From: Candidatus Latescibacterota bacterium
GTDB taxonomy: Bacteria > Latescibacterota > UBA2968 > UBA8231
Reading direction: 5' to 3'
Assembly: GCA_964291625.2 (NCBI GenBank)
Contig: OZ220089.1
Span: forward strand, 260,542-324,541
DNA length: 64,000 bases
In this document: one piece after another, positions 484 to 22,573 of the stretch
Layout of the letters: every line of letters starts with the position of its first letter
Numbering within the stretch: the stretch's first letter is position 1
Notes under the pieces: generated by a model
What the model saw: the letters and a program-made list of their open reading frames with translations, nothing else
Database searches by the model: none
What the model was told of the DNA's origin: nothing
Translations under genes and position numbers: made by a program

Positions 484-2698
484 GGGCCGGAGGGTCCGGA
501 TCCTCCAGGGCCTCTCGCAGGCGGGCGGCGAGGTTGGTGTTCCGGCGGGCCGGGCGGTCGTTCTCGATGGCCCGCCGCAGGGCGCGCTGGCTGCCGATGA
601 GGACGAAGAGCTCCCGGGCCCGGGTGACGGCGGTGTAGAGCAGGTTGCGCTGCAGCATCGGGTAGTGCTGGGTGGTCAGGGGCAGGACGACGGCCGGGAA
701 CTCCGAGCCCTGGGCGCGGTGGATGCTGATGGCGTAGGCCATGCTCAGCTGGTCGAGCTCGGCCAGCTCGTAGCGCTGCACGCCGCCGTCGTCGAAGACG
801 ACCTCGGCGAAGGACTCTTCCCCCGTTTCCAGGCGGCCGATGCGCCCCAGGTCGCCGTTGAAGACCCCCTTGTCGTAGTTGTTGCGCACCTGCATCACCC
901 GGTCTCCCTCGCGCAGCTCGCGGTCGCCGATGGCGTGAGGCTTGCGCCCCGGGTTCAGGCGCTCCTGGAGCTGGCGGTTGAGCTGCACCGCGCCGGTCTC
1001 TCCGCGGTACATGGGAGTCAGGACCTGGATCTGCCGCATGGGGTCGAGATCCCGGCCCTGCGGCATCCGCCGGGACACCAGGTCCACCAGGCGCTGGGAG
1101 ACCCGGGCGGGGTCGTCCTCCTCGACGAAGTAGAAGCCGGAGTCGGCGCGGTTGTCGATCCGGGGCCACTCGCCGCCGTTGATGCGGTGGGCGTTGGTGA
1201 CGATGAGGTTGTCGCCCGCCTGGCGGTAGATGTGGCGCAGGCGCGCCACGGGCACGACGCCGGAGTCGATGACATCCCCGAGGAGATTGCCGGGACCGAC
1301 CGAGGGCAACTGGTCGGCGTCGCCCACGAGGACCAGCCGGGCGCCGTCGGGGACGGCCCGGAGCAGCGCGTTCATCAGGTTGATGTCGACCATGGAGCTC
1401 TCGTCGACGATGACCGCCTCCGCTTCGATGGGCTGGTTGCCATCGCGGCGGAAGCCGCCCTCCCGGGGGGCGTACTCCAGAAGCCTGTGGATGGTTCGGG
1501 CCTCGCGGCCGGTGGCCTCGCCCAGGCGCTTGGCGGCCCGCCCCGTGGGCGAGCACAGGGCCACCCGCAGGCCGGACGCCTCCAGGCGCCCCACGATCTG
1601 GCGGGTGATGGTGGTCTTGCCCGTGCCGGGGCCGCCGGTGACGACCAGGACCTTCCCCGCCCCCATCTGCTCCAGGGCCCATCGCTGGTCCTCTCCCAAG
1701 GACGCCTCCTCCTCGGCATCCGCCTCCCCCACCTCCTTCGCCAGGGCCGGACCCGGGGAGGTGAGTATCCGCTCCAGGGCCCGGGCCACCCCCCGCTCGG
1801 CCCGGTGCAGCCGCCCCGGATAGCAGTCCCGCCCCTCCACGACTACGTCACCCGCTTCCTGGAGGGCCGAGAGGGCCTCCGGTACTCGGCTGGAGTCGAC
1901 GCCGAGGAGGAGCTCGGTCGCCGAGGCCAGCTCCTCCTCGGGCAGGAAGAGATGGCCCTCGTCGGCGGCTTCCTGCAGCAGGTAGCGGAGGCCGGCGCGC
2001 ACGCGCTCCGGGGCGTCGCGGGCGATGCCGAGATCCCCGGCGATGCGGTCCGCCGTCTGGAAGCCGATGCCGCGCACGTCGCGCTGCAGCCGGTAGGGAT
2101 CCTGCCGGACGCTGTGGATCGCCTCCGCGCCGTACTGCTGGTAGATGCGTACCGCGTGCCCCGTGCCGACGCCGTGGGACTGGAGGAAGACCATGACGTC
2201 GCGGATGCGCCGCTGCTCCTTCCAGGCCTCGGCGATGGCCTGAGCCCGCTTGCGCCCCAAACCCTCGATCTCCAGCAGCCGCCGCGGCTGAGCGTCGATC
2301 ACTTCGAGGGAGGAGTCGCCGAAGCGGGCGACGATGCGCCTGGCCATGACCGGACCGATCCCCTTGATCAGCCCCGAGCCGAGGTAACGCTCGATGCCTT
2401 CGGCGGTGGCGGGGTACTCGGGGATGCACGACTCCACCCGCAGCTGGCGGCCGAAGCGGGGATGGAGGTCCCAGCTCCCCTCCAGCCGCACGCTCTCGCC
2501 GGCGGAGACCGCCATGGTGCCGACGACGGTGACCGGCTCCCCCTCGCCTTCCGGGCGCAGCCGGGCGATGGTGTAGCCGTTCTCCGGGTTCTGGAAGGTG
2601 ATGTGGTCGATGAGCCCCTTGAGGCGCACACCCGGCCCGGAGGCCGGGTCCTCCGGCGGCGCCCTCCCGGGGCCTTCGAAGAGGTCGCGCTCGCTCAC
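464..2698 (-). CDS. recD2: RecD2-type (RecD-like) SF1B DNA helicase
   Basis: Real part of ORF 464..3199. GTG start at 2698 overlaps the upstream stop (ATGTGA). Motifs: Walker A VVTGGPGTGKTT, IVDESSMVD, LVGDADQLPSVGPG, SIHRAQGSEF, LLYTAVTRAR. N-terminal HhH-like GIGPVMARRIV and the typical LIDHITFQNPENGYTI N-terminus are present. Confidence 0.9.
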   Translation of the reverse strand: MSERDLFEGPGRAPPEDPASGPGVRLKGLIDHITFQNPENGYTIARLRPEGEGEPVTVVGTMAVSAGESVRLEGSWDLHPRFGRQLRVESCIPEYPATAEGIERYLGSGLIKGIGPVMARRIVARFGDSSLEVIDAQPRRLLEIEGLGRKRAQAIAEAWKEQRRIRDVMVFLQSHGVGTGHAVRIYQQYGAEAIHSVRQDPYRLQRDVRGIGFQTADRIAGDLGIARDAPERVRAGLRYLLQEAADEGHLFLPEEELASATELLLGVDSSRVPEALSALQEAGDVVVEGRDCYPGRLHRAERGVARALERILTSPGPALAKEVGEADAEEEASLGEDQRWALEQMGAGKVLVVTGGPGTGKTTITRQIVGRLEASGLRVALCSPTGRAAKRLGEATGREARTIHRLLEYAPREGGFRRDGNQPIEAEAVIVDESSMVDINLMNALLRAVPDGARLVLVGDADQLPSVGPGNLLGDVIDSGVVPVARLRHIYRQAGDNLIVTNAHRINGGEWPRIDNRADSGFYFVEEDDPARVSQRLVDLVSRRMPQGRDLDPMRQIQVLTPMYRGETGAVQLNRQLQERLNPGRKPHAIGDRELREGDRVMQVRNNYDKGVFNGDLGRIGRLETGEESFAEVVFDDGGVQRYELAELDQLSMAYAISIHRAQGSEFPAVVLPLTTQHYPMLQRNLLYTAVTRARELFVLIGSQRALRRAIENDRPARRNTNLAARLREALEDPDPPAPTASGA

Positions 2699-3336
2699 AT
2701 CAAGGCAGCTCGCAGCAGCAGGGTGACGGCCGCCCCGAGGGCGGCGCCGGCCACCAGTTGCGCCGGCGAATGGGCCTGCCGCCGCCAGCGGGCCCACCCC
2801 GCCGCCAGGGGCAGCAGCGCGCACAGGGGCCACCACGCGGCTTCCACGAGGGTGGCCGCCAGCGCCGCCCCTCCCCCGGCGCCGGTGGTGTGGATGCTGA
2901 TCTTCCACCGGCGGTTCACCAGGCCGACGCCGGCGGCGCCCACTGCGAAGGACGCCGCCGCCCAGCGCTGCACCGGCGGCATCTGCAGCCCCTGGAGGAG
3001 CGCGAACCCGACGGCGTAGCAGAGGGTCCCGACGAGCAGGAACCGGCTGCGCAGAGGGCGGGGGGGATCGTAGATGTCGTCGACTCCCCCGCCCCTGGCC
3101 AGCCAGCCCAGGAGGGCCGCGGGGCCGATGGAGAACAGCAGGATGGCCAGGGCCTTGCCCCCCGCCGACCTCAGGGGATCGCCGCCGGCGGGCAGCCACA
3201 GGAAGACGACCAGGGCCAGTCCCGGCGGGCTCAGGAGATGGGTGATGCAGCGCGCCGCCCCGTCGGTCCAGCCCGACCGGTCCGCCGCGGCTTGCGCGTC
3301 TCCGTCCCCGCCGTCACCCCCGGGCCGGGCCCTCAC
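2695..3336 (-). CDS. PAP2-superfamily membrane phosphatase-like protein
   Basis: C-terminal part of ORF 2695..3546. Multi-pass hydrophobic protein with PAP2-like motifs (KISIHTTGAGG; RRQAHSPAQLVAGAALG). Proposed GTG start at 3336 overlaps the PqqD stop as GTGA. The start is inferred. Confidence 0.6.
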   Translation of the reverse strand: MRARPGGDGGDGDAQAAADRSGWTDGAARCITHLLSPPGLALVVFLWLPAGGDPLRSAGGKALAILLFSIGPAALLGWLARGGGVDDIYDPPRPLRSRFLLVGTLCYAVGFALLQGLQMPPVQRWAAASFAVGAAGVGLVNRRWKISIHTTGAGGGAALAATLVEAAWWPLCALLPLAAGWARWRRQAHSPAQLVAGAALGAAVTLLLRAALM

Positions 3337-3770
3337 CGCTTCCACTTCTTGCCGCTGGCATCCCTCCCTCTCCTGGCCCCCCCGGAACCCGCTTTGCCGG
3401 CGCCCTCCACGAGGAAGCCGATGAACCGCTTCTGACCGAGGGTCTTCAGGTAGGAGAGCAGGGAGACCTCCGCTTCCTTGCGGTCGAGCTTGTACCGGTC
3501 CCGGAGGCCTTCGATCATGTCCGCCACCGAGTTGCGGCCGTCGCACATCTGCCAGACCTGCGCGCCCACCTCGTCGAGGGTGATGGTCCGCTTCTCGGGG
3601 ATGTAGAAGAGCTTCGACAGGAGGCGGGTCTTCCAGGTCTCCTGCCGCGTCACCGTTATCCGGATCTCACCCTCCTCCGTCTTCTCCCACGCCAGCAGCT
3701 CGTTGCGGGCCGGCCGCGACTCCAGCATGGCGTCCCGCGTCAGCCGCGGCTTCTTCTTCGTGGCAAACAT
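3333..3770 (-). CDS. PqqD-family (RiPP-recognition-element-like) small protein
   Basis: ORF 3333..3770. The core ITLDEVGAQVWQMCDGRNSVADMIEGLRDRYKLDRKEAEVSLLSYLKTLGQKRFI matches the PqqD/peptide-chaperone pattern. An alternative ATG lies at 3728. Either start overlaps the upstream gene by 60-104 nt. Confidence 0.7.
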   Translation of the reverse strand: MFATKKKPRLTRDAMLESRPARNELLAWEKTEEGEIRITVTRQETWKTRLLSKLFYIPEKRTITLDEVGAQVWQMCDGRNSVADMIEGLRDRYKLDRKEAEVSLLSYLKTLGQKRFIGFLVEGAGKAGSGGARRGRDASGKKWKR

Positions 3771-4788
3771 ATCCGTCCATGACTTCGTCGAGGGTGTCGC
3801 CGCCTTGTTCGCGCTTCTTGAACAGATGCTCGACGATGCAGATGCGATTCAAGTCGGGGCAGTGCCAGACCGCGCCCCGCAGGTAGCGCCTCGGCCTCGG
3901 GTTGACGAAGGGCAGGGGCCGCAGCACCTGGCGCCAGCGGCTCTGGGGCCGGCCGGTGACGCGCAGGCCATCGTGGCCGCGGAAGTCGGCCCGGGCGATC
4001 TCGTGGTTCACGTCGCGCAGGTCCTTGCGGAAGAAGGAAGGGTACCAGTTTGAAAGGTCCGTCCCCTTCAGCAGCATGTGGGCCATGCTCAGGCGGTGCA
4101 CGCGCAGGACCTGGGCGCCCCCGTCCTTCTCGAAGGTCATCTTCACGTGGCCCGACTTCAACTCCTTCTCGGTGAGCTCGAAGTCCGCGGGGGCGTGGAA
4201 GGTGAGGCCGTACAGGCTCCAGTACTGCAACTCGCCGCGGGGGTGGTCCTCGAGGGTGGGCAGGATCTCGTTCACCAGGCCGATCACGCCGCCGCCGTCG
4301 TCCTTTGCCGCGAGCACCCGCAGGAGCACGATGCGGCCGCAGTCCGGACAGGCGCGGGCCAGGTTGTAGGCCCGGTAGTCTGCCTCCCAGACGAAAGTCT
4401 CGTACTCGCTGCCCTCGAGCCAGCGCTTGTCCTGGAGGAACTTCGCGCGCCGCTCGACGCGCAGCTCCATGCCCGCCTTGTCGGCTTTCTTCTGCAGCTG
4501 GGAGAGATAGCGCCCCACGAGGTCCTCGACGGGCCGGCGGATGCCCCGCTTGGGAGGGGCCCGCCACTCGACCTCGGCCCGCACCATGCGGGTGTCGTCG
4601 AGGCGCGCGTAGCCGCTGGCGGCGTCGCCGTCGACCCGGCCCATCTCCCACTCCTCCGGGACGCGCAGCCGGATCCCCTGCCAGCCGAAGTCGTAGCGTC
4701 TGCCCCCCGCGGCCTGACGGGATCTTCCGGCGGGCTGCCGGGTCGGAGCCCCGCCTTCCACGGCCGGAAGTCCGTCGCTTGCGGACAT
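3667..4788 (-). CDS. hypothetical protein (373 aa), no recognised domain
   Basis: C-terminal in-frame part of shadow-extended ORF 3667..7461, starting at ATG 4788 (MSASDGLPAVEGG...). Balanced composition (W, Y, K, F rich: YETFVWEADYRAYNLARACPDCGRIVLLRVLA), unlike the Arg/Pro-rich upstream extension. Confidence 0.6.
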   Translation of the reverse strand: MSASDGLPAVEGGAPTRQPAGRSRQAAGGRRYDFGWQGIRLRVPEEWEMGRVDGDAASGYARLDDTRMVRAEVEWRAPPKRGIRRPVEDLVGRYLSQLQKKADKAGMELRVERRAKFLQDKRWLEGSEYETFVWEADYRAYNLARACPDCGRIVLLRVLAAKDDGGGVIGLVNEILPTLEDHPRGELQYWSLYGLTFHAPADFELTEKELKSGHVKMTFEKDGGAQVLRVHRLSMAHMLLKGTDLSNWYPSFFRKDLRDVNHEIARADFRGHDGLRVTGRPQSRWRQVLRPLPFVNPRPRRYLRGAVWHCPDLNRICIVEHLFKKREQGGDTLDEVMDGYVCHEEEAAADAGRHAGVAAGPQRAAGVGEDGGG

Positions 4789-4811
4789 GGACCTTCCCGA
4801 CCCGGACGCGC

Positions 4812-7295
4812 TTAGAAGATGAGGACCGACACCGACTTCTGGATCAGGGCGATGGAGATCGACGCCATGCCCATGAGCGCCATGCCGCAGGCGAAGCCGA
4901 CGGCGAGGACGGGCGCGTACGTGCGCCACTGTTGTCGTCCGTAGCGGTTCCAGAAGTAGTACCGGGCCAGCATGGCGCCGATGACCTCGGTGATCATCCA
5001 GTGCGGTATCGTCGTCAGGGCGCGGACGTACCCAAAGACGAGGAGGATCGGCAGCCCGAAGGCCGACAGAAAGATGTAGCTGCCCAGGCCGACGACGGTC
5101 CCGGCGACGATGAGGTTCGGCTTGATGGCGCGGAAGAGCCACGGCTCGTCGGTGGAACGCTGGATCCAGGGACTGGTGAAGTTCGGATCGGTGTCGACGG
5201 CGAAGTAGTACTCCCAGCCGGCGGGCAGGGACTGGGCGCTGGAGGCGAGGAGGGCGGGGCGAGGCGTGTCGACGACGCCGATCACCGGTCTCTCGCCCTC
5301 GACCAGGTCGGGGATGCGGTCCGGGGTGGCGACGGCGTCGCGGACCAGCTCGGCGGCGTGCGCCAGGCCCGCGACAGCGGGGCCGGCGGCGCTCACCTCG
5401 TAGCCCGCTCCGGCCGGGAGCGCCTTCTCCAGGGCGCCGGGCGGCAAGGGCGGCACGTCTTCGGGCATACCCTCGCCGAAGTGGGTGTAGAAGGCGCGCT
5501 TCTCGGACCAGGGGCCGGCCTCCCCGAGCTTGCCCTGCGACTCTATCCACTTGCTGTCGGCGGCGCGCACTCGCCAGTACCACCACTCCCCTTCCACCAG
5601 GTTCGAGGGCACCCAGGTGGCGCTGTTGCGCTCCGGCGACTCCTTCAGCTCGCTCTTCAGGGTGCCGGTGAACCAGATGCATGTCTGCAGGGCCCGGAGG
5701 CGCCACATGACCTGGGCATAGGGGTACGAGGCCGAGGGGATGGGGGCCAGCTTCCAGATGTAGGAGGAGTAGAGGAAGGTGGCGAAGAGCACGATGGGCA
5801 CCATCACCACCTCGGCCTTGATGATGCTCGTGAACTTGGTGCCCGTGAGCTCGATCTCGCGGAACTTCTGGGTCTGGGAGCCGTAGTTGCCCAGCGGGAA
5901 GGGCATGAACCAGATGTCCACGCCCTGGTACCCGGAGAGGATGATCGTCGCCTCGCGCACGTAGGGGATCTCGATCGTCTGCCCCACCATGCCCACGAGG
6001 CGCGCGTTGACGAAGGACTGGAACGGCGTCAGCACGAACCCGAAGAACAGGAAGAACCAGATGAACTGGTGGAAGGCGGGCAGGAAGATCCAGGCGATGA
6101 CGATGAGGCCGGCGGCGGTGAGCCCGTACAGGGTCAGGGCGATCCACATGGGGAAGTCGCCGCGCCCTTCGGGCACCGCCCAGGAACCGCCCCCCCTGCC
6201 GGAGGCCCTGGCGGCGGCGGCGGTGCGCAGCCCCTGCACGACCTGCCAGATACCGATGAGGGCGATGGCGATGGTCGTGCCGATGCCGAAGCTCATCCAG
6301 AAGTCGACGGAGTTGACGAAGAAGGTCTCGATGGCGCCCATGCCGGGCTGCCAGATCTGCAGGTAGCCGAGGTCGTAGAGGATCGGGTTGGCCACCGAGT
6401 GGGCGACGACGCCGAGGAAGGTGCCCATGACCCCCCAGAAAGGCATGACGAGGCCGGCGAAGATCGGCCCCAGATGGGCGGTGAACCCGAGGGGGGTGGC
6501 GGGGATGAAGTTGCCCGTGACCTGGGTGAAGTCGACGAAGGGAATGGGGATCAGCTGGATCGGCTTGGTGAGCAGGGAGCCGGAGATCGCCGGGATCGCC
6601 ACGTACAAGGTGCCGAAGACCAGGCCGATCATGGCCCCGGCGGAGAACGCCCTCCAGCGCCACGACTCCACCCCCTGGGTGGTCTCGGCCAGGGCCGTGG
6701 CCCCCTGGGCGGCGACGGGCGCGAAGGGAAAGGGCAGGCGCTCGTAGTCGGAGTTCAGCCGGAAGAGGGCATAGGCCATGGTGAACCACGAGACCCGCGA
6801 GATCACGAACTGCGCCAGCAGCAGCGAGATGGGGATGATCCAGTCGGTGTGCAGGAAGGTCCGCTGCAGCAGCGCCGGCGACTCCAGGGGCGGCGCCCAC
6901 CAGTCCGGGATCAGGTTGGCGATGCCGAACTGCTGCGCCGGCGGCGACTGGCGCAGGTACTGGTTCCACAGCAGCCCCTCGAAGGCGCCGGTCTCGGCGG
7001 CGATCAGTCCCGCCGCCACGTAGTAGAGGACGTATACCTCCTGGCGCGTCAGGGAGGTGAAGGAGCGCTTGGTGATCTCGGCGAAGAGGATGATCGTCAC
7101 CCACTCCGCCGCGGCGCCGAGGGAACCGCCCACCATGAGGCTGAGGTACATGTTCCCCGGGATCATGACGAAGGCGACGAAGAAGACGCCGAGGATCGCC
7201 TTGCGGGTGAAGCCGTCCTCGAACTCGGTCGGCGTCTCGAGGAGGTCGCGGTACTCTTCGACTTCCTGGTTGGCGTTGCTCTTGCGTCTCAGCAT
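4812..7295 (-). CDS. 827-aa polytopic membrane protein, OPT (oligopeptide transporter)-superfamily-like, with a ~200-aa soluble insert
   Basis: ORF 4812..7295. It has many predicted TM helices. The N-terminal segment FTRKAILGVFFVAFVMIPGNMYLSLMVGGSLGAAAEW resembles the OPT N-terminus. A hydrophilic insert (TLKSELKESPERNSATWVPSNLVEGEWWYWRVRAADSKW...) lies between TM bundles. The family assignment is tentative. Confidence 0.6.
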   Translation of the reverse strand: MLRRKSNANQEVEEYRDLLETPTEFEDGFTRKAILGVFFVAFVMIPGNMYLSLMVGGSLGAAAEWVTIILFAEITKRSFTSLTRQEVYVLYYVAAGLIAAETGAFEGLLWNQYLRQSPPAQQFGIANLIPDWWAPPLESPALLQRTFLHTDWIIPISLLLAQFVISRVSWFTMAYALFRLNSDYERLPFPFAPVAAQGATALAETTQGVESWRWRAFSAGAMIGLVFGTLYVAIPAISGSLLTKPIQLIPIPFVDFTQVTGNFIPATPLGFTAHLGPIFAGLVMPFWGVMGTFLGVVAHSVANPILYDLGYLQIWQPGMGAIETFFVNSVDFWMSFGIGTTIAIALIGIWQVVQGLRTAAAARASGRGGGSWAVPEGRGDFPMWIALTLYGLTAAGLIVIAWIFLPAFHQFIWFFLFFGFVLTPFQSFVNARLVGMVGQTIEIPYVREATIILSGYQGVDIWFMPFPLGNYGSQTQKFREIELTGTKFTSIIKAEVVMVPIVLFATFLYSSYIWKLAPIPSASYPYAQVMWRLRALQTCIWFTGTLKSELKESPERNSATWVPSNLVEGEWWYWRVRAADSKWIESQGKLGEAGPWSEKRAFYTHFGEGMPEDVPPLPPGALEKALPAGAGYEVSAAGPAVAGLAHAAELVRDAVATPDRIPDLVEGERPVIGVVDTPRPALLASSAQSLPAGWEYYFAVDTDPNFTSPWIQRSTDEPWLFRAIKPNLIVAGTVVGLGSYIFLSAFGLPILLVFGYVRALTTIPHWMITEVIGAMLARYYFWNRYGRQQWRTYAPVLAVGFACGMALMGMASISIALIQKSVSVLIF

Positions 7296-7313
7296 TCTCG
7301 GAAGGGCCGCGGT

Positions 7314-10300
7314 TCAGGCGGAGACGGAATCGGCGGGGGCGCCGGCCAGCAGTTCCTGCCCCTGGCTCCGGTAGGCCTCCTTGGCCTCGGAGTCGACGGT
7401 GCGCCAGATGAGGAACTGCTTGCGGATGACGTTCATGAAGCGCTGGTTGACGCGCCGCCACGAGGCGTCCTCGCCGCTCAGGCGGCGGATGTCGAGCTGG
7501 ATCTGGTAGATGTTGTGCTCGGACTCGGGCAGGGCGCGGATGACGACGTGCTGGCTCACCCCCAGGTCGAAGGGCGCCAGCCAGATGTTCATGTCGATGG
7601 TGTACCCCTCGCCGTACTCGGAGTCGAGGCGGCCCAGCTTGGCGCCGTCGGTGTAGAAGGTCCCGATCGATTCCTCGGAGTAGGAGTCGAAGTAGCCGAT
7701 GAGGAAGACCGACAGGCCGAGGACGTCGCGCCCCGCCACGGTGAAGGGGAACTCGAAGTGCCAGTCGTCCCCTTCGGGCCGGGGCAGCCGCCAGCGGCGG
7801 GTCACGTCGGGTACCGCCATCTGCGACGCCCGGCGCGCCGGGTAGATGGTGGAGAGCATGACCACCGCCATCACCAGGATGCAGGAGAGCACCGCCGACA
7901 GGGACGAGTAGTTGAGGGTGAAGCCGGTGACCACCCCGAGCTGGGTCAGAAGGGTCGCCGTGATCTGACCGACGAGGTAGCCGGCCACCACCCCGAGGAC
8001 GGAGTAGACGCAGGACTCGGCCATGAACAGCCAGGCGATATGCCCCGGCGCCAGGCCCACGGAGGAGTAGATGCCGATCTCGCGGAAGCGCTCGTAGACG
8101 CTGCCCATCATCGTGTTGAGGACGATGAGGGCGGCGATGAGGATCGGCACGAAGAGGTTGGCCACCCCCGACAGCGAGGTCATGCCCAGGGAGCTGTAGA
8201 TCGACACCTTGATGTAGTCGTCCCCCGGCTCCTGGATGCCGGCGAAGAGGGTCACCGCCAGGCGCGACAGGAACTGCTCGATCTCGGCGCGCTCGTCGAC
8301 GCCCTCGTCGAAGCGGATCGCCACCGACTGCAGGGGATTGCCGCTGCCCACGTTGCGCAGCGTGTGGTACGGCAGGATCAGGGTGTTGGCCGGCTCCAGG
8401 TGGACGAAGGGCTTGATCACCACCTGCGCGTCCTCGAGGCCCTGCTTCTCCCGCTGCTCCTCCTCGGCGATCTCCTGCACCGCCTGGCCGCCGGTGACGG
8501 CGAAGTCGGCGGGCGTCATCGTCTCGTCGTCGAGGTCCTTCAGCTCCTTCATGCGCGTGGAGTTGATGATGCCGATGACGGTGAACTGCTCGCCGAAGAC
8601 GCGCACCGTGGCGCCGCCGGCGTCGACCTCGCCCATGTCGATGCCGAGCTTGTCGGCCCCGAGCATATCGTTGGGCAGGATGCAGACCCTCTCCTCGCCC
8701 TCCTGGAACCAGCGTCCCGCCAGCAGGGCCTGGTCGAGGCCTGTCACCTCGGTCTCGGACGGGGTCAGGCCGAGGACGCCGAGGGCGTTATGGGCATCCT
8801 CGCCGTACTTGATCTTGATGTGGGCCTTCTTCTGGTTGTCGTACCAGCTCCGCGGCGCGATGGCGGCCCGGTCGCCGAAGTTGCTGTGGGCGTACTCGAG
8901 GACCGACTCCTCCAGCGGCGTCCACGCCTTGCTGCGGATCAGCAGGCCCTCGTAGAGCCCCTCGTTGTCGCGCTCGATCTGGTTGTAGCGCAGGGCCGTC
9001 TGGATGGACGTGAAGGACAGGACCGTGAAGGTGAGCAGCAGCAGGGTGACGAAGGTCAGCGCCGTGCGCAGCTTGCGGCGCTTCATGTTGCTGATGCCCA
9101 GGAGGAAGGCGGTGAGGGAGGCGCTGGAGCGGCTCACGTCGGTGTCGTGGATGACCGCCACCTCGGTGCGCAGTTTCTTCATCTGCTCGTTGAAGCGGCC
9201 GGAGATGATCCACATGACGAGGACCGCGAGGACGAGGATCACGAAGGCCAGGAGGATGACGAAGGGGTTGGACAACTCGAAGGCCGGGTGGACGAAGGAG
9301 AGGACGATCCAGATGACGAGGAAGATGCCCGCGAAGCCCATGATCTGGCGCTGGATCGTGGCCGCGGTGATCAGCAGGCGCTCGGCGAAGTAGGCGCAGG
9401 GCAGGACCAGGGCCATGAAGAAGATGATGCCCTGGATGACGTCGTTCTGGGTCGACTTGACGTCGGGATAGGCCCGCGACTCGAGGCCGATGGCCGAGCG
9501 CGTGTGGCGCACGAACGCGCTCCACTCCTTGCGCTCCAGGGCCGCCGCCGCCCGTTCCAGCTCTCCCCGGGCGCGCTCGTGCAGGTCGTTCAGGCGCTGG
9601 TTCTCGATGGCGAAGCTCCGCAGCTCGCGCATGCGGGCCTCGTCGAGGGTCCACATGTCCCTGGCCGACTGGTAGGAGGTGCGCGCGAAGGAGGATCCCG
9701 GCTCCATGGCGAAGCCCGCGCCCAGGGCCTCCTCCTTGTCGTCGGGGTTCTCGGAGTTCAGCAGCAGGGAGCGGAAGCCGAGGATCCCGGCGCCGAAGCC
9801 CATCTTCACCAGGGCTCCCGGCCGGGCGAAGAGCACGCCCACCGGCTCGTCCTTGGCCGAGGGGCCCTCCCCGATGGTGTATCCGTACTCCACGGGGGAG
9901 GCGTTGGTCTCGTCGAAGACGGTGACCTCGGAGAGCTTGGTGAGGTAGCGGGGATCGACGATGTCGAAGAAGTTGAAGGCCTGGCACGGGAAGAGGACGA
10001 CCATCCACTCCTTGTCGCGCCAGTCCATCTTGATCAGCATCGGGTAGGCCTGGTCGCCCTGGATGCCGCGGTCCGGCGCGTAGCTGACCCGTCCGGTGGC
10101 CGGGTCCATGCGGTAACCCTCCACCTGGACCTGCTCGACGCGGATGCGGTTGACGAAGAAGGCGCCGTCGCCGTCGACGACTTCGAAGTACTCGCCGCGC
10201 ACGCCCTTGTAGGACTTCTTCTTGCCGTTGCGCACGACGCCGACAGCGCCCGTGCGCGGCAGGTCGGGAACGATGCTGCGCCTCGGGAAGACCATGGTCC

Positions 10301-12152
10301 GCGCCTTCAGGGACCGCATCGTGTCCTTGAGGCGCATCTTGAAGTCGGGGAACAGCTCCGGATCCTCGAAGGCCATGTGGAACATCCCCGCCAGGGCCCG
10401 GATCTGCCGCGAGAGGTTGTCGTAGCGGATGTGCTGCGCCCGGTCGAGGGGCGTGTCGACGAGGAACCGGGCATCGTTGACGGTGACGAAGGCCAGGGCG
10501 GGGGTGCCCGTGGTCAGCACCAGCTCGCTGTTCACGGAAATCTCGCCGGGGACGAAGGTCTCCCAGCTCTTCCCCCCCTCGGGACTGATGCCGTTCACCA
10601 GGACGTCGCGGAAGCTGTAGCCCAGCTCGCGGCTCACCTTTCGCGAGTACCCCATGAAGTTCTTGCCGAAGGGTGCGAAGTAGCGCTTGTAGTAGAAGCT
10701 CGAGTTGCTGTTCCAGATGCCGAGCTCGTCGGTCTGCGTCGACAGGTCGAGGCTGATGAACAGGTTCACGTCGAGGGAATCGACCTTCGGATCGACCCAC
10801 TCGCGGTAGAAACCCAGGCGCAGGTCCTCGTCGTCGCCGAGCTCCCTCAGCAACTCGTCGGAGGTGTCGAAGGAGGCCTGGCGCCGGTCGCCCCCCTTCC
10901 GGTAGCGGAGCCGCCAGTCGTCGCCGTCGCGGACGATCAGGTCTTCCCCGTCGGCCATGGAGGCCCTGGCCACGGCGCGCACCAGCAGGGTGTCGGTCTC
11001 GGCCACGGAGCGCACCAGCGCCTCCTTGCCGCTGAAGGTCTCCTCGCCGAGACGGTAGGTGACCCCGTCCTCCCCCTCGCCGATCAGCCCGCGGGCCAGG
11101 GACGCTTCGACGACCCGGCGCAGGACCATGCGGTCGATGAAGGGGTTCTCGTCGCGCAGGTAGCGCTGGATGAAGTCGTCGATGCCGCGCAGGGCGAGGT
11201 GGTGCGCGGAGGTGGCGAGGAACAGGACCGAGCGCGCCGGGGGATGCTCGCGGAAGTACCGGGCCAGCTCGAGCAGGGCCGTGATCCCCGCCGCCTGCTC
11301 GGCGCCGGGTGCGAGGGAAGGCACGACCGACATGGCGTCGTAGTACGACTCCAGGACGATCACGTCCTCCTGGAGCAGAGGGTCGTAACCGGGGATGAAG
11401 CCCATGACGTTCCAGGCCGGGCGCCGCTCCCAGTCCATGCGGTACTCGAGGTGGACCGAGGGCGGCGTACCCGCGCCCTCGATCGCCTCCCGCAGCAGTC
11501 CGCCGTCCGCGCCGCTGACCCAGAACCGGGGCAGGTCGAGGGGCATGGTGAGGAACTTCTTCTCGCCTTCGAGATAGACGGTCGAGTCGGGCTCGATGAA
11601 GACGACGGCGGCAGCGCCGAGGTAGGCGCCGTTGAGCCAGTTGTCGCCGGAGTTGAAGTCGAGGACGACGACGGCTCCCGCCACGTCCTGGCCGTCGAGC
11701 TCCTCGAACTCCCCCCGGCCGCCGTAGATCAGGGGCCCGTGGATGCCGCCGTCGGGCAGGGTCGAGGTGCGCACCAGGTTGGGCCACAGTCCGTGGAGCT
11801 CCACGGACGGCCCTCCCGCGATCCTCAGCCGCCCTCCCTGGTCGACGGGCACGGAGACGTCGTACTTGTGGAAGGTGATGTCGTGCAGACCGATCTGCCG
11901 GAACTGGCGGTGCACGTGCAGGGCCGCCTGCTCGGCGCCGGGATAGCCGGCCACGCGCGAACCGAGGCCCGAGAAGAATCCCACGGTCTGGCGCAGACGG
12001 TCCTCCGGCGCCAGCTCGCGCAGGGCCTCGAAGTCGACTTCGGCCGCCGCCGGCGCCGCCGCGAGGACGGCGAGCAGGCCGAGGGACCCCGCGCGCAGAC
12101 GGAGAAACGGGCGGATATCGGTCATGACCGGGTAATGATCGGCAAACGGCAT
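7314..12152 (-). CDS. fusion protein: signal peptide + PA/M28-peptidase-like ectodomain + long unknown region + MacB-type FtsX permease (MacB periplasmic core + FtsX TM domain) + C-terminal extension
   Basis: Real part of ORF 7314..12764. ATG at 12152, or ATG at 12125 giving MTDIRPFLRLRAGSLGLLAVLAAAPAAAEV. PA/M28 pattern: VVVLDFNSGDNW ... PGAEQAAGITALLELARYF ... VLFLATSAHHLALRG. MacB TM1 signature ISNMKRRKLRTALTFVTLLLLTFTVLSF. FtsX signature ERFREIGIYSSVGLAPGHIAWLFMAESCVYSVLGVVAGYLVG ... STIYPARRASQMAVP. Confidence 0.75.
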   Translation of the reverse strand: MPFADHYPVMTDIRPFLRLRAGSLGLLAVLAAAPAAAEVDFEALRELAPEDRLRQTVGFFSGLGSRVAGYPGAEQAALHVHRQFRQIGLHDITFHKYDVSVPVDQGGRLRIAGGPSVELHGLWPNLVRTSTLPDGGIHGPLIYGGRGEFEELDGQDVAGAVVVLDFNSGDNWLNGAYLGAAAVVFIEPDSTVYLEGEKKFLTMPLDLPRFWVSGADGGLLREAIEGAGTPPSVHLEYRMDWERRPAWNVMGFIPGYDPLLQEDVIVLESYYDAMSVVPSLAPGAEQAAGITALLELARYFREHPPARSVLFLATSAHHLALRGIDDFIQRYLRDENPFIDRMVLRRVVEASLARGLIGEGEDGVTYRLGEETFSGKEALVRSVAETDTLLVRAVARASMADGEDLIVRDGDDWRLRYRKGGDRRQASFDTSDELLRELGDDEDLRLGFYREWVDPKVDSLDVNLFISLDLSTQTDELGIWNSNSSFYYKRYFAPFGKNFMGYSRKVSRELGYSFRDVLVNGISPEGGKSWETFVPGEISVNSELVLTTGTPALAFVTVNDARFLVDTPLDRAQHIRYDNLSRQIRALAGMFHMAFEDPELFPDFKMRLKDTMRSLKARTMVFPRRSIVPDLPRTGAVGVVRNGKKKSYKGVRGEYFEVVDGDGAFFVNRIRVEQVQVEGYRMDPATGRVSYAPDRGIQGDQAYPMLIKMDWRDKEWMVVLFPCQAFNFFDIVDPRYLTKLSEVTVFDETNASPVEYGYTIGEGPSAKDEPVGVLFARPGALVKMGFGAGILGFRSLLLNSENPDDKEEALGAGFAMEPGSSFARTSYQSARDMWTLDEARMRELRSFAIENQRLNDLHERARGELERAAAALERKEWSAFVRHTRSAIGLESRAYPDVKSTQNDVIQGIIFFMALVLPCAYFAERLLITAATIQRQIMGFAGIFLVIWIVLSFVHPAFELSNPFVILLAFVILVLAVLVMWIISGRFNEQMKKLRTEVAVIHDTDVSRSSASLTAFLLGISNMKRRKLRTALTFVTLLLLTFTVLSFTSIQTALRYNQIERDNEGLYEGLLIRSKAWTPLEESVLEYAHSNFGDRAAIAPRSWYDNQKKAHIKIKYGEDAHNALGVLGLTPSETEVTGLDQALLAGRWFQEGEERVCILPNDMLGADKLGIDMGEVDAGGATVRVFGEQFTVIGIINSTRMKELKDLDDETMTPADFAVTGGQAVQEIAEEEQREKQGLEDAQVVIKPFVHLEPANTLILPYHTLRNVGSGNPLQSVAIRFDEGVDERAEIEQFLSRLAVTLFAGIQEPGDDYIKVSIYSSLGMTSLSGVANLFVPILIAALIVLNTMMGSVYERFREIGIYSSVGLAPGHIAWLFMAESCVYSVLGVVAGYLVGQITATLLTQLGVVTGFTLNYSSLSAVLSCILVMAVVMLSTIYPARRASQMAVPDVTRRWRLPRPEGDDWHFEFPFTVAGRDVLGLSVFLIGYFDSYSEESIGTFYTDGAKLGRLDSEYGEGYTIDMNIWLAPFDLGVSQHVVIRALPESEHNIYQIQLDIRRLSGEDASWRRVNQRFMNVIRKQFLIWRTVDSEAKEAYRSQGQELLAGAPADSVSA

Positions 12153-12163
12153 GGGCCCCGCAA

Positions 12164-12694
12164 TCACCGCCGGGGGGCGAGACCTCCCCCGTAGCCCGCC
12201 CTGGCCAGGGCCCTCACCGCGTAGTAGGTGATCAGCCCCGTCATCGCCCCGGAGAGGACGCCGCCCACCAGGAAGAGGGGCAGCAGCCGCAGCAGACCCG
12301 CCTGGGAGAGGTAGATCTCGGCCACCAGCAGCTGCGTCACCTGGTGGACGACGGCTCCCGCGATGCTCAGCCCCACGGGGCTCAACAGGCCGGGCACGGA
12401 TCGCCGCAGGCCGACCATCGCGGCCAGGCTCGTGAGGGCGGCGCTGCCCCCGATGACCGACGCCGGGCCGGCCAGACCGCCGCTCAGCAGACCGCCGACG
12501 AGGACCTTCACGGCGCCCACCGCCGCCGCCGGACCGCCGCCGAAGAGCAGCAGCGTCGCCAGGACGGCGGCGTTGCCGAGTCCGAGCTTCATCCACGGCA
12601 GGGGGCGCGGCACCGCCGTTTCGAAGACGAAGAGGATCAGAGCGGCGGCCGACATCAGGCCCAGGAAGGCGGCGCGCCTGCCGGGCGAGAGCAT
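12164..12694 (-). CDS. Gx transporter family protein (heptaprenyl-diphosphate-synthase-component-I-like, PF07456-type membrane protein)
   Basis: ORF 12164..12694. Small glycine-rich multi-pass protein (PLPWMKLGLGNAAVLATLLLFGGGPAAAVGAVKVLVGGLLSGGL...). It sits in its usual pairing directly after a NusG-domain-II protein. Confidence 0.7.
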   Translation of the reverse strand: MLSPGRRAAFLGLMSAAALILFVFETAVPRPLPWMKLGLGNAAVLATLLLFGGGPAAAVGAVKVLVGGLLSGGLAGPASVIGGSAALTSLAAMVGLRRSVPGLLSPVGLSIAGAVVHQVTQLLVAEIYLSQAGLLRLLPLFLVGGVLSGAMTGLITYYAVRALARAGYGGGLAPRR

Positions 12695-13119
12695 CAGCGG
12701 CTGACCCCGTCGAAGGCGGGGCCGCCCTCGCCTTCGACCCGGACCACCAGATGGTTGGGGACACAGACCGCCACGTCGCCCACCGCCCGCAGCCAGCCGC
12801 GGCGGACGCAGATCCGCCGGGCGCAGGGAGAGGCGGCCACGCGGACGCGGCTGCCGTCGACCACCACCTCGCTCGCCCCGGCGGGGCCGGGGACCTCGAT
12901 CCGCGCCGCTTCGCTCAGCGGCAGGAGGCGCACGACCTCGCCTCCCACCTGGACGCTCGCCGACCGGGGGGTACCGCCGCCGGGCCTCGACACGAGCAGG
13001 ACCGCCGCCAACAGCAGAACCGCCGCCGCGAGGACGATGTCGCCCGGGCTGGGAGGCAGGGGCCGGTACGGCTTGACACTCCCCCTGGGGCTGTTTACAC
13101 TGCCGAGAGCGCCACGCAA
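12694..13119 (-). CDS. NusG domain II-containing (DUF1312-like) membrane-anchored protein
   Basis: ORF 12694..13119, with TTG as the only canonical start. One N-terminal TM helix, then the Cys-containing pattern SPCARRICVRRGWLRAVGDVAVCVPNHLVV typical of this family. Its stop overlaps the next start (TGATG). Confidence 0.65.
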   Translation of the reverse strand: MRGALGSVNSPRGSVKPYRPLPPSPGDIVLAAAVLLLAAVLLVSRPGGGTPRSASVQVGGEVVRLLPLSEAARIEVPGPAGASEVVVDGSRVRVAASPCARRICVRRGWLRAVGDVAVCVPNHLVVRVEGEGGPAFDGVSR

Positions 13120-13226
13120 GGCCGTATCTCGTTGTCGGCTATGGAGTAACCGCCGTTTCGCGAGGCCTGCTTCGAGGCCTCCGGCCCCCCCTTGCCCGTC
13201 GAGCCCGCAACGGCGCCACCGGGCTT

Positions 13227-15515
13227 GTGAGCCCCCTCTTGACGACCCCCCGGATCGCCATCGACGAAGCGCCCCCCCGCAACGGGGAGGAGCTGCCGGA
13301 GCGCCCGGGCCCCACCAACCTCGAGGCCCTGCTCGAGGACTCGCGGGACCACCTGCAGCTTCAGATGCTGCTCATCGAGGTCGCCTCGTGCAACGAGTCC
13401 GCCGACTTCGACCTGGTTGCGCGCGCCTACCACTTCGCGCACCAGGCCCACGCCGGCCAGATCCGCAAGTCGGGGGAACCCTTCCTCCAGCACATCGTCG
13501 AGGTGGCTCGAATCCTCGCCCAGCTGCGCCTCGACACGACCACCGTCGCCGCCGGCCTGCTCCACGACGTGGTCGAGGATACGGAGGTCACCCAGGACCA
13601 GATCGAGTCCCGGTTCGGGTCCAAGATCTCGGCCCTCATCGACGGGGTCACCAAGATCGAGCGCTTCCAGCTCGAGAGCCGCGAGGCCCGCCAGGCCGAG
13701 ACCTTTCGCAAGATGCTGCTTTCCATGGTCGAGGACATCCGGGTCATCCTGGTCAAGTTCGCCGACCGGCTGCACAACATGCGCACCCTGGACGCCCTCG
13801 ACGACCACCAGCGCCAGCGCATCTCCCACGAAACCCTGGAGGTCTATGCGCCCCTGGCCCACCGGCTGGGCCTGGCCCGGATCCGCTGGGAGCTGGAGGA
13901 CCGCAGCCTCAAGCATCTCGAGCCCGCGTTCTACCGTGAGATCCGGGAGAAGGTGGCCATGCGGCGCGAGGAGCGGGAGCGCCTGATCGACGGCTTCAAG
14001 ACGCCCCTGGCCGAGGAGCTGACCCGCAGCGGCATCGAGGCCGAGATCACCGGGCGTCCGAAGAACTTCTACAGCATCTACAACAAGATGCGCAGCCGGG
14101 TGAAGCCCTTCGAGGAGATCTACGACCTCACGGCGGTGCGCATCATCGTCGGCACCGTGCGCGAGTGCTACCACACCCTCGGCCTGGTGCACACCCTCTA
14201 CCGACCGATCCCCGACCGCTTCAAGGACTACATCGCCACGCCGAAGACCAATATGTACCAGTCCCTGCACACCACCGTCATCGGCCCCCAGGGCATGTCG
14301 GTGGAAGTGCAGATCCGCACCTGGGAGATGCACCACACGGCGGAGATCGGCATCGCCGCCCACTGGCGCTACAAGGGAGGCGGGGCCGGGGAGAGCAGCG
14401 ACCTCGACCAGCAGATGAACTGGCTGCGCCAGGTCCTCGACTGGCAGCGGGACGCCACCGACCCCGTGGAGTTCATGGAGAACCTGAAGATCGAGCTCTT
14501 CCAGGACGAGATCTTCGTCTTCACCCCCAAGGGGGATCTCCACCAGCTGCCGAAGGAGGCGACCCCCATCGACTTCGCCTTCGCCATCCACACCGACATC
14601 GGCCTCCATTGCCTCACCGCCAAGGTGGACGGCCAGATCGTGCCCCTGAGCACGCCCCTGACCAGCGGCGCCACGGTGCAGATCATCACCTCGCCCCACC
14701 AGAAGCCGAATCCGTCCTGGCTCGAGATGGTCAAGACCGCCAAGGCCCGCCAGGCGATCCGCCGCTGGGTGAAGGAGGAGCGGCTCTCCCAGAGCGTTCG
14801 CCTCGGCCAGGAGATCCTCGAGCACGAGCTGAAGCGCTACCGCCACCGCGCCGGCAGCGAGGCCCTCGAGGAGCTGGCGGCGGAGCTCAAGCTGGCCGAC
14901 ACCGAGCACCTCTACGCGGCCATCGGCTCCGGCGACCTGTCGGTGAGCCGCGCCGTCAACCGCCTCGTGCCGAATCCGCCGAAGCGGCGGGTGAGGCCGC
15001 TGATCCGCGACCGGCGGGGCATCCGCATCCAGGGCATGAACGACATGATGATCCACTTCGGGAAGTGCTGCACTCCGATCCCCGGGGACCCGATCATCGG
15101 CCTCATCACCCGGGGCCGGGGGCTGTCGGTGCATCGCACGGACTGCCCCAACTTCGCCGACCTCGCCGAGGACCCGGAGAGCCTCACGCCGGTGGCCTGG
15201 GACCTCGAGGAGGAACAGGCCTTCACGGTGCAGCTCCTCGTGCGCGGGCATGACCGCAAGTACTTCCTCTCCGACGTGACCCGAATCATCTCCGACACGG
15301 GGGCCAACATCGTCAGTTGCGAGACCCGGACCCTGGCTCACGTCGTGGAGGAGACGTTCCGGATCGACGTGCACGACTCCCGGCAGCTGCAGAAGATGGT
15401 GAAGAAGCTGCGCGGCGTGGAAGGCGTCACCGAGGTGCAGCGCGTCGACAAGGTTGCCGTGGAGGGGCCGAAGGACCCCGACGGGGAGGCCTGGAGTTCC
15501 GACGAGCGCCGGTGA
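13227..15515 (+). CDS. relA: bifunctional (p)ppGpp synthetase/hydrolase RelA/SpoT family
   Basis: ORF 13227..15515, GTG start with an alternative ATG at 13365. HD hydrolase motifs (HAGQIRKSGEPFLQHIVEV, LLHDVVEDT), synthetase block (GRPKNFYSIYNKM ... DLTAVRIIV ... YQSLHTTV), TGS (VFTPKGDLHQLPKEATPIDFAFAIHTDIG) and a C-terminal ACT-like domain. Confidence 0.9.
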   Translation: MSPLLTTPRIAIDEAPPRNGEELPERPGPTNLEALLEDSRDHLQLQMLLIEVASCNESADFDLVARAYHFAHQAHAGQIRKSGEPFLQHIVEVARILAQLRLDTTTVAAGLLHDVVEDTEVTQDQIESRFGSKISALIDGVTKIERFQLESREARQAETFRKMLLSMVEDIRVILVKFADRLHNMRTLDALDDHQRQRISHETLEVYAPLAHRLGLARIRWELEDRSLKHLEPAFYREIREKVAMRREERERLIDGFKTPLAEELTRSGIEAEITGRPKNFYSIYNKMRSRVKPFEEIYDLTAVRIIVGTVRECYHTLGLVHTLYRPIPDRFKDYIATPKTNMYQSLHTTVIGPQGMSVEVQIRTWEMHHTAEIGIAAHWRYKGGGAGESSDLDQQMNWLRQVLDWQRDATDPVEFMENLKIELFQDEIFVFTPKGDLHQLPKEATPIDFAFAIHTDIGLHCLTAKVDGQIVPLSTPLTSGATVQIITSPHQKPNPSWLEMVKTAKARQAIRRWVKEERLSQSVRLGQEILEHELKRYRHRAGSEALEELAAELKLADTEHLYAAIGSGDLSVSRAVNRLVPNPPKRRVRPLIRDRRGIRIQGMNDMMIHFGKCCTPIPGDPIIGLITRGRGLSVHRTDCPNFADLAEDPESLTPVAWDLEEEQAFTVQLLVRGHDRKYFLSDVTRIISDTGANIVSCETRTLAHVVEETFRIDVHDSRQLQKMVKKLRGVEGVTEVQRVDKVAVEGPKDPDGEAWSSDERR

Positions 15516-15544
15516 CCGCCGCCGCGTCCGGCACCGGGAGGCCG

Positions 15545-15574
15545 TTGACACGATGCGCGGAGCCCGGGTACCTT
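15545..15574 (+). promoter_or_regulatory. candidate sigma70-type promoter for hisC (TTGACA-N18-TACCTT)
   Basis: TTGACA at 15545-15550 and TACCTT at 15569-15574 lie 28 nt upstream of the hisC ATG, in the 86-nt relA-hisC spacer. This is sequence resemblance only. Confidence 0.25.
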
Positions 15575-17201: not shown

Positions 17202-17234
17202 CGGACCAATATACCCCCGTACCCCGCAAACCCG

Positions 17235-18236: not shown

Positions 18237-18397
18237 CGCCACTCCTCTTCGAGCCGGCCTCGTGGCCGCGGGATCTCCCTGGACTCCGTGCATGGTTCCA
18301 AGATAAGGCAGGAGAGAGGGCGGGGCTCCCATGGGATCAGACCCCGTCAGCCTCCCGTCACTATACTCTCTCAGGTCCTCACCTGCCCCCGGATGAC

Positions 18398-20851: not shown

Positions 20852-22573
<1,722 letters not shown>

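Follow-up and report, generated by a model that had tools for sequence, protein, structure and literature searches.

Within a 64,000-nucleotide stretch of a Candidatus Latescibacterota bacterium genome (assembly GCA_964291625.2, contig OZ220089.1, positions 260,542 to 324,541; hereafter the window), a minus-strand operon is built around a 1612-residue fusion protein (7314–12152) with Pfam matches to Peptidase_M28, MacB_PCD and FtsX. Downstream of this module centre lie, on the same strand, the genes for an 827-residue polytopic membrane protein that is OPT-like (4812–7295), a 373-residue soluble protein (3667–4788) and a 131-residue PqqD-family protein (3333–3728). The locus looks like that of an undescribed membrane machine and not of a peptide-antibiotic factory. 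Its stable core is the fusion together with the OPT-like gene, a pairing that persists at 23–26% identity, and the permease of the fusion is an orphan at the level of the locus. We tentatively read the locus as encoding a periplasmic capture-and-translocation complex of the inner membrane. No published description of the module, or of this combination of proteins, was found in the literature.

A comparison of loci carries the case for this core. The species genomes of GTDB hold 503 fusion loci, of which the best 80 were inspected along with about ten distant loci; in a protein collection the fusion has 574 homologs, and among the top 120 the majority span nearly the whole protein at 55–99% identity. 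The best 80 loci come nearly all from Latescibacterota metagenome-assembled genomes (MAGs), several of them labelled Gemmatimonadota. Their conserved order runs from RelA on the opposite strand through NusG_II, Gx, in some loci a DUF6785 gene, the fusion, the OPT-like gene, the 373-residue protein and PqqD to a variable stretch, PAP2 and RecD2. The OPT-like gene stands downstream of the fusion in 67 loci at a median gap of 21 nt, and across loci neighbouring genes are 3–30 nt apart or overlap. Fusion identity across the Latescibacterota loci is typically 72–75% (range 57–99%), with RelA at ~60–65% and RecD2 at ~56%. The original prediction, made from the letters of the window, would have been refuted had the architecture been common and annotated with a known function. 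Common it is, but annotations go no further than 'FtsX-like permease family protein' or 'M28 family peptidase'.

The distant fusions are 23–26% identical to the window protein over its C-terminal two-thirds and align end to end, tail included. Among seven sampled distant places, an OPT-like protein adjoins a giant FtsX fusion in four. Outside the main cluster, the core alone persists, in several arrangements: the fusion followed by an OPT-like gene (L002); two DUF6785-plus-fusion pairs in tandem (L003); Crp, DUF6785, fusion and OPT-like gene in that order (L086); DUF6785 and fusion followed by a true Pfam OPT protein (L087); fusion then OPT (L088 and L089); and fusion, OPT, then DUF6785 (L090). 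The PqqD and 373-residue genes were seen in the main Latescibacterota-type cluster only; no distant or paralogous locus that was examined has either of them. One could suppose that these neighbours form no functional unit and are held together by conserved genome order within one phylum. The RelA and RecD2 flanks are also syntenic in most Latescibacterota loci, and gene order alone is therefore weak evidence within the phylum. The pairing of fusion and OPT-like gene nevertheless survives in unrelated neighbourhoods at 23–26% identity and in tandem duplicates, the genes are as closely spaced as given above, and the overlap between the 373-residue and PqqD genes is conserved in 59 of 62 loci. 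Of all the explanations weighed here, mere shared gene order strikes us as the least probable.

The hydropathy profile of the fusion begins with a signal or anchor segment (aa 21–39), continues with an ectodomain up to aa ~904 and three transmembrane (TM) helices (aa 905–983), and then shows a cytoplasmic elbow, the MacB TM1 (aa 1032–1050), a periplasmic domain (aa 1051–1326) and TM2–4 (aa 1327–1436). Pfam places Peptidase_M28 at aa 248–329 (E = 1e-6), MacB_PCD at aa 1041–1218 (E = 2e-6) and FtsX at aa 1334–1445 (E = 2e-15). Both methods agree with the architecture and topology that had been predicted at the outset, namely a signal peptide, an ectodomain, three TM helices, a MacB permease and a tail of ~170 aa.

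The periplasmic ectodomain (aa 40–904; 9441–12035, minus strand), delimited by profile searches and hydropathy, contains a PA plus M28-like module at ~aa 51–335 and 455–580. An insert of ~110 aa splits this module and is missing from relatives of 1465–1550 aa; after the module come ~320 aa without family assignment. PF04389 scores 29.1 bits on the fusion against a cutoff of 21.3, covering model positions 1–78 of 193. The profile of the fusion family aligns to the PA-containing aminopeptidase 2ek8 over ~285 positions (E = 1.2e-13) and also to 6hc6, and more weakly to nicalin (7tm3, E = 2e-4) and the transferrin receptor. The PA domain that had been proposed for the ectodomain is upheld by the alignments to 2ek8 and 6hc6 and by a PF02225 match in a paralog, whereas on the window protein itself it has no Pfam match.

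Most of the catalytic apparatus that M28 peptidases use, a co-catalytic set of zinc ligands (H, D, E, D, H) with a catalytic Glu, is missing from the fusion. The HxD motif is replaced by Y270-Y271-D272, the bridging Asp by E285 or Q, and the Glu-Glu pair by H317-H318; the last His is lost, and only D272 and D469 are retained. The replacement residues are themselves invariant. Because the catalytic Glu-Glu pair is found in no homolog examined, relatives at 23–26% identity included, the M28 module of the fusion is probably a pseudo-peptidase, and binding is favoured over hydrolysis. The ectodomain thus described resembles PA-domain M28 aminopeptidases (2ek8, YwaD 6hc6) in having the PA insert within the M28 fold, and resembles the transferrin receptor and nicalin in its lack of a co-catalytic zinc site. 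Unlike these M28 relatives, it is fused to a permease, split by the ~110-aa insert and marked by conserved Y-Y-D/E/H-H residues at the ligand positions.

The ectodomain is tethered to the permease by three extra TM helices (aa 905–983; 9204–9440, minus strand), whose hydropathy peaks lie at aa 905–927, 937–955 and 965–983. Two motifs of this region, P..(5)..ERL and HP, are invariant down to 23–26% identity. The MacB-type permease module follows (aa 1019–1445; 7818–9098, minus strand) and consists of the elbow helix, TM1, a periplasmic core of ~275 aa and TM2–4. PF02687 FtsX matches with E = 2.2e-15 and 57 bits (cutoff 25.5), and PF12704 MacB_PCD with 28.7 bits (cutoff 27); profile matches in the PDB are MacB 5lil, YtrF 9o9x, LolC 7arh and LolF. 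In an AlphaFold2 (AF2) model covering aa 890–1612, the periplasmic domain of the permease reaches a pLDDT of ~80–90, and its top Foldseek match is the periplasmic region of MacB (3ftj, E = 1.8e-6, TMt 0.61).

Between TM2 and TM3, the permease bears the coupling-helix motif ER..E....S.VGL.P (window form ER.REIG..S.VGL.P), retained at 23–26% identity, and near its C-terminus the motif YP..A....P...R.W, likewise retained in the distant homologs. In MacB, LolC and FtsX, the coupling helix and the C-terminal YP..A motif dock the ATPase. When comparing the fusion with MacB, LolC-LolE-LolF and FtsX, the shared anatomy is extensive and comprises the four-TM FtsX bundle, the periplasmic core between TM1 and TM2, the elbow and both motifs. 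The differences are equally marked. Across ~90 loci, the fusion has no ATPase joined to it or encoded beside it; its N-terminal extension measures ~1000 aa, a cytoplasmic domain of ~170 aa follows TM4, and an obligate OPT-like neighbour takes the place of the ATPase or adaptor gene at its locus. Against NCBIfam, it falls far under all family cutoffs (MacB 33 bits versus 966, LolC 25 versus 473).

MacB-type permeases are the textbook transmission of ATP-driven motion across the membrane, and the ATPase of MacB, Lol and FtsEX systems is as a rule either fused or encoded next door. At the level of the locus, the fusion lacks the cognate ATPase, fused or in the same operon, that is a feature of MacB and other type VII systems. 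In the 64 kb of the window, no pair of Walker A and LSGGQ motifs occurs in any of the six frames, and tblastn with an ABC nucleotide-binding domain returned nothing under E = 1, which concurs with the initial observation that the window holds no ABC ATPase. Within ±10 kb of the fusion in 80 GTDB loci, tblastn likewise found none. The full set of 87 sequences (1.87 Mb, window included; ~90 loci) yielded a single ABC ATPase, in L002, ~6 kb from the fusion and beyond a transposase. A cognate ATPase just outside the locus, which would have spoken against the original prediction, was not seen in these ~90 related loci.

A conventional ATP-driven MacB-type (type VII ABC) machine would accommodate this if its ATPase gene lay elsewhere, possibly shared between permeases. 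Working from the periplasmic side, such a machine would pull out or expel a component of the envelope, with the OPT-like, PsbP-like and PqqD-like proteins in accessory or regulatory roles. The full MacB anatomy (elbow, coupling helix and C-terminal YP..A) is kept at 23–26% identity, conservation as high as this would befit an essential role in the envelope, and one paralog adjoins a divergent ExbD pair, an envelope context. Orphan FtsX-type permeases exist (ADOP, TIGR03434), and shared ATPases are known in other ABC classes. The ADOP proteins of Acidobacteria are indeed similar to the fusion in being FtsX-type permeases without a neighbouring ATPase, and their function is not known; they differ in having two permease modules and no peptidase-like domain, whereas the fusion has one module and scores 33.7 bits against the TIGR03434 cutoff of 622. 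Set against the ATP-driven machine are the lack of an ATPase beside the fusion in ~90 loci of very distant lineages, the ~170-aa non-P-loop domain fused after TM4, at the place of a nucleotide-binding domain, and the obligate OPT-like neighbour, which it leaves unexplained. We regard it as a serious possibility, albeit a doubtful one.

That C-terminal cytoplasmic domain (aa 1446–1612; 7317–7817, minus strand) gave no Pfam match in a scan of 15 tails and no PDB profile match at E up to 10, and it is still present and alignable in homologs at 23–26% identity. The tail is a new sequence family, possibly with a helix-grip (Bet v 1/START-like) fold. In the AF2 model, it reaches a pLDDT of ~80 with the element order beta-alpha-beta5-alpha-alpha, and Foldseek with the aa 890–1612 model returned dozens of Bet v 1, PYL, CoxG and Ups1 matches (E ~1e-2, probability 0.9–0.98, 150–175 columns). 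We assign these matches to the tail only tentatively, from their tail-like length, as the aligned positions were not reported.

The second member of the core, the 827-residue protein, shows ~12 hydrophobic segments and an insert of ~210 aa (aa 515–725; nt 5121–5753) that is probably periplasmic. Neither this protein nor the 373-residue protein matched any Pfam family; for the former, nothing appeared at E up to 10 with PF03169 (OPT) or with DUF6785/DUF6784 (PF20581/PF20580). Its C-terminus matches TIGR00728 weakly (E = 1.3e-3, 17 bits against a cutoff of 128). An exhaustive profile search with the family gathered 1040 representative clusters, many of 620–690 aa, and 16 of 41 sampled members pass PF03169 (best E = 1.3e-17). 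The family profile recovers the PF03169-passing proteins at E = 1e-55 to 1e-80, one example being P0436 with 64 bits against 25.8. Because 16 of the 41 sampled family members pass the Pfam model, we place the 827-residue protein in the OPT superfamily as a divergent member, its membership resting on intermediate sequences. The label 'OPT-like' that it had first been given thus holds by way of these intermediates, while the direct match, to TIGR00728, is only weak. No PDB sequence match was found by profile search with the family.

Like OPT proteins (PF03169/TIGR00728, TC 2.A.67), the 827-residue protein is polytopic, matches TIGR00728 weakly at its C-terminus and has relatives that pass PF03169. 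Unlike them, it fails PF03169 itself, carries the ~210-aa insert and often adjoins an FtsX fusion. We know of no report of a characterised OPT protein encoded beside a giant FtsX fusion. At the N-terminus of the 827-residue protein (aa 1–31; nt 7203–7295), we observed a conserved acidic cytoplasmic peptide, EEYRDLxExPxEFxxGFT, which is retained even where PqqD is absent. This peptide and the ASGKKW motif of PqqD described below are possible interaction peptides.

In many relatives, a second protein of this kind is present. In 37 of 83 loci, Gx and the fusion are separated by a DUF6785/DUF6784 gene of ~655 aa (e.g. L014, 7975–9951), and none is present in the window. There, 11 nt separate the Gx gene from the fusion gene (12153–12163), and the window lineage is therefore without a second OPT-like partner. 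A shallow hhalign comparison of the 827-residue family with DUF6785 was weak (E = 5.6e-4, probability 30%), whereas a deeper family profile aligned to DUF6785/DUF6784 end to end (probability 96%, E = 2e-9, 565 columns). By these profile comparisons, the DUF6785/DUF6784 proteins are OPT-like too, and the 827-residue protein is itself a remote relative of DUF6785 and not a member.

The 373-residue protein has no TM segment by hydropathy and no NCBIfam match. Its 128 homolog clusters are all unnamed or called 'hypothetical protein', and every homolog with a named source comes from a MAG labelled Latescibacterota or Gemmatimonadota. An AF2 model (pLDDT 83.9, pTM 0.78) was matched by Foldseek to TplEi (5h7y, E = 2.6e-5), PsbP (1v2b, TMt 0.62), CyanoP, Mog1 and EagT6. 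The matches have probability 1.0 and E-values of 2.6e-5 to 1e-3, with TMt values of 0.5–0.65 per domain to PsbP, CyanoP and Mog1, and both domains align to TplEi. The predicted structure is a tandem PsbP/Mog1-like fold, a resemblance of fold with no membership in a sequence family, and on this model the protein is probably an adaptor (a protein-binding scaffold) rather than an enzyme. It is comparable to the type VI secretion system immunity protein TplEi, which also has two PsbP-like alpha/beta domains in tandem. It differs from PsbP, Mog1, TplEi and the DUF1795 Eag adaptors in its cytoplasmic location without a signal peptide and in its invariant loop, and its sequence has no detectable similarity to theirs.

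This loop is basic and proline-rich (aa 279–300; nt 3889–3954; RPxSRWRQxLRPLPxxxPRPR) and has an AF2 pLDDT of 63–69. It looks like a docking motif that may fold on binding, with PqqD and the tail of the fusion as candidate partners. The last 28 residues of the protein, encoded in the overlap with the PqqD gene, are predicted to be disordered. A 330-residue protein encoded after the OPT-like gene in L086 was considered as a counterpart and proved unrelated.

The PqqD-family protein passes the PqqD model, as had been anticipated (PF05402, E = 5e-13, 49.5 bits against a cutoff of 23.4). Its profile matches PqqD 5sxy and 3g2b as well as the lasso-peptide recognition elements TbiB1 5v1u and 9x90, and it scores under every cutoff of the system-specific NCBIfam models. 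It shows no TM segment by hydropathy and ends in a conserved ASGKKW motif (nt 3336–3362). The conserved start is the Met at 3728 (M-L-x-S-R-P), giving 131 aa. From this start, the overlap with the preceding gene, first given as 60–104 nt, is 62 nt, and the upper figure of 104 nt applies only from an upstream ATG at 3770. An overlap of 26–62 nt is present in 59 of 62 loci and is exactly 29 nt in 44 of these. A frameshift fusion of the 373-residue and PqqD proteins was ruled out by direct translation of L015, the overlaps being only 26–62 nt. Whereas the protein is akin to PqqD 5sxy and TbiB1 5v1u in its profile matches and its PF05402 score, it differs from PqqD and other elements of ribosomally synthesised and post-translationally modified peptide (RiPP) systems in that no partner maturase or precursor gene was found, and in its N-terminal extension of ~45 aa, its ASGKKW motif and its coupling to a PsbP-like gene.

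The original prediction had proposed ribosomal peptide or lipopeptide processing and export, with PqqD binding a leader, M28 trimming it, and MacB and OPT exporting the product. The PqqD protein is genuine and resembles lasso-peptide leader-binding proteins, MacB-type pumps export peptides and toxins, and the fold tentatively given to the tail may bind lipids or other hydrophobic ligands. No RiPP maturase (radical-SAM, YcaO, lanthipeptide, lasso B2/C) was found in the operon, as had already been noted for the window, or in the loci with Pfam-annotated neighbours; for the 80 GTDB loci, tblastn over the ±10 kb flanks used only the window proteins, the ABC ATPase domain and a DUF6785 protein as queries, and these flanks were not screened for maturases. 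The gaps among the fusion, OPT-like and 373-residue genes and behind PqqD are 18–33 nt and therefore leave no space for a precursor gene. With the M28 catalytic residues gone across the family, processing by this module is unlikely, and the predicted fold of the 373-residue protein is that of an adaptor. To our knowledge, OPT transporters import wherever their function is known, which argues against export. The PqqD and 373-residue proteins lie outside the stable core, and phylum-wide conservation at 72–75% among housekeeping genes is unlike that of natural-product clusters. Taken together, these points make peptide processing and export very unlikely at this locus. A PqqD-family protein without RiPP machinery also calls for caution in RiPP pipelines baited with recognition elements.

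We therefore return to the capture-and-translocation complex, which would be arranged as follows. Its core would be the MacB-fold permease with the non-catalytic PA/M28 receptor domain, together with one or two OPT-superfamily proteins, namely the 827-residue protein here, joined in many related loci by a DUF6785 protein. A small periplasmic ligand, peptide-like or of another kind, would first be captured by the pseudo-peptidase ectodomain and the periplasmic core of the MacB part and then be handed to the OPT-type partner, which would move it across the inner membrane by proton-motive force, the force that drives characterised OPT transporters. Coupling across the membrane would fall to the MacB-like four-helix bundle. 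At the cytoplasmic face, the coupling helix and the tail would in Latescibacterota be joined by the PsbP-like adaptor and the PqqD-like peptide-binding protein, whose genes are translationally coupled and which may regulate the complex or receive its cargo. We infer the physical association, the direction of transport, the substrate and the energy source, and for the last we see two candidates, the proton-motive force, acting by way of the OPT partner, and an ATPase whose gene lies elsewhere. That the permease works without any ATPase at all, its cycle coupled to the proton-motive-force-driven OPT partner or gated by the tail and the PsbP-like and PqqD-like proteins, we consider unlikely. Outside Latescibacterota, the neighbours of the fusion include GFO_IDH_MocA, GH43-related, GHL6/ThuA, AP_endonuc_2 and Crp genes, and this catabolic and Crp-type company fits an uptake role, if weakly.

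Several observations weigh against the capture-and-translocation complex and keep our preference for it tentative. Its proteins are linked by genomic adjacency alone. The conservation of the fusion above the level of RelA and RecD2 is more in keeping with an essential machine of the envelope than with an importer of nutrients. Retention of the ATPase-docking motifs even in distant homologs would be expected if the fusion still bound an ATPase whose gene lies at another place. The AF2 model is weak in the membrane region, with a pLDDT below 50 for most TM helices of the fusion. Members of the OPT-like family also occur without an adjacent fusion, on short contigs (L091 and, as one and the same gene, L092/L093). 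Finally, a class of paralogs has a partner that is not an OPT protein. In five loci (L042, L046, L059, L078 and L084), genomes with the main cluster carry a second fusion copy, 67–69% identical. Downstream of this copy lies the gene for a 939-residue UPF0182 protein and upstream of it a divergent pair of ExbD genes, and no OPT-like, 373-residue or PqqD gene is found there.

This paralog class bears on a further explanation, in which the locus provides a quality-control or biogenesis scaffold for membrane proteins or the envelope. The ectodomain would then be a nicalin- or nicastrin-like gatekeeper, and the OPT-like and UPF0182 proteins would be partners or clients. The pairing with UPF0182 is in line with this, as are the non-catalytic M28 module, the profile match to nicalin of the endoplasmic reticulum multipass-translocon BOS complex (7tm3), and the housekeeping level of conservation in the company of RelA, Mur ligase and RecD2. 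For Actinobacteria, a 2026 preprint connects UPF0182 with membrane-protein homeostasis and with regulation of the protease FtsH (10.1101/2025.11.14.688347). The UPF0182 link is, however, indirect, drawn from another phylum and limited to one paralog class. The likeness to nicalin is generic for M28 proteins, as 2ek8 and 6hc6 score far better, and no protease or chaperone gene is among those identified in the cluster. Such a scaffold appears to us quite improbable, less so than export of a processed peptide and more so than a permease that needs no ATPase.

The six operon genes themselves are well defined. The window has a G+C content of ~70%, and codon-position GC was used to tell true genes from open reading frame (ORF) artefacts; in the six genes, GC3 is 0.88–0.96 and GC2 is 0.42–0.58. 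This and the Pfam matches bear out the predicted minus-strand operon of NusG_II, Gx, fusion, 827-residue protein, 373-residue protein and PqqD. Spurious ORFs lie antisense or out of frame to the real genes at 4305–12194 (plus strand), 13095–15551 (minus strand) and 3740–4651 (minus strand). The first of these would encode 2629 aa, and the GC3 of such ORFs, e.g. 0.42–0.58, marks them as artefacts of high G+C. A scan for promoters and terminators of the operon gave counts no higher than chance. The four core proteins are present as exact sequences on a 4.79-Mb public contig, and close members of the cluster are named 'FtsX-like permease family protein', 'hypothetical protein' (twice) and 'PqqD family protein'.

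The operon starts with NusG_II, and its divergent upstream neighbour is RelA/SpoT. The NusG domain II protein (12694–13119, minus strand; PF07009, E = 2e-21) has one N-terminal TM helix by hydropathy (aa 26–44). It was found in 64 loci, where its gene overlaps the Gx gene by a median of 1 nt, and its position upstream of the module is conserved in the main Latescibacterota-type cluster only. The Gx transporter/Hpre_diP_synt_I protein (12164–12694, minus strand; PF07456, E = 3e-30) is a small polytopic membrane protein with four or five hydrophobic segments by hydropathy. At the other end, PqqD, a PAP2-like ORF and RecD2 are joined by 4-nt overlaps in the window genome. The PAP2-like ORF (2695–3336, minus strand) scores 22.1 bits, under the Pfam cutoff of 27.2. 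Many of the related loci have an insert of variable length, up to ~2 kb, between it and PqqD, and the 4-nt coupling of PqqD and PAP2-like ORF is not a conserved feature. PAP2 and RecD2, which had been counted with the operon, are neighbours in some loci only and stand outside the module. Further genes of the window (16674–28530) encode a DUF2802-like protein, a GT2 glycosyltransferase, a Mur ligase, a lamin-tail-domain protein, an FG-GAP/ASPIC protein, a DUF4159 protein and a 1103-residue TPR protein, and none is evidently linked to the module.

Some observations on the related loci may be added. In loci other than those of the main Latescibacterota cluster, a gene for AP_endonuc_2, a xylose-isomerase-like TIM barrel, recurs no more than a few kb from the fusion (L002, 2937–3761; L003, 15854–16219 and 19916–20935; L084, 17963–18754; L085, 9014–9856), often accompanied by PhyH, GFO_IDH_MocA and glycoside-hydrolase-like genes. 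One metagenome contig is identical to the window (L001, 1–2843), and its fusion gene is split in the gene calls into ORFs of 736 aa and 225 aa, probably through a frameshift or assembly error. Contigs 98–99% identical to the window (L004 and L005 among them) are labelled Gemmatimonadaceae or Candidatus Latescibacterota, and single loci carry the labels Planctomycetota, Aminicenantes and Handelsmanbacteria; taxonomic labelling is not consistent across these MAGs.

For annotation, the DUF6785/DUF6784 proteins and many 'hypothetical' membrane proteins of 620–830 aa become placeable as OPT relatives, and a 'hypothetical protein' so far seen only in Latescibacterota-type MAGs gains a predicted tandem PsbP-like fold. 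For the biology of the family, the larger point is that a large group of proteins keeps the whole MacB permease, has no neighbouring ATPase at its loci and travels with OPT-superfamily proteins. This raises the question of whether a MacB fold can work without an ATPase or is served by a shared ATPase encoded elsewhere. Were the former true, the ABC type VII permease fold would have been taken over by a secondary transporter, and the ATPase-free permease would represent a new hybrid class of transporter or of trans-envelope signalling device. A permease of this fold that truly runs without an ATPase would be categorically new.

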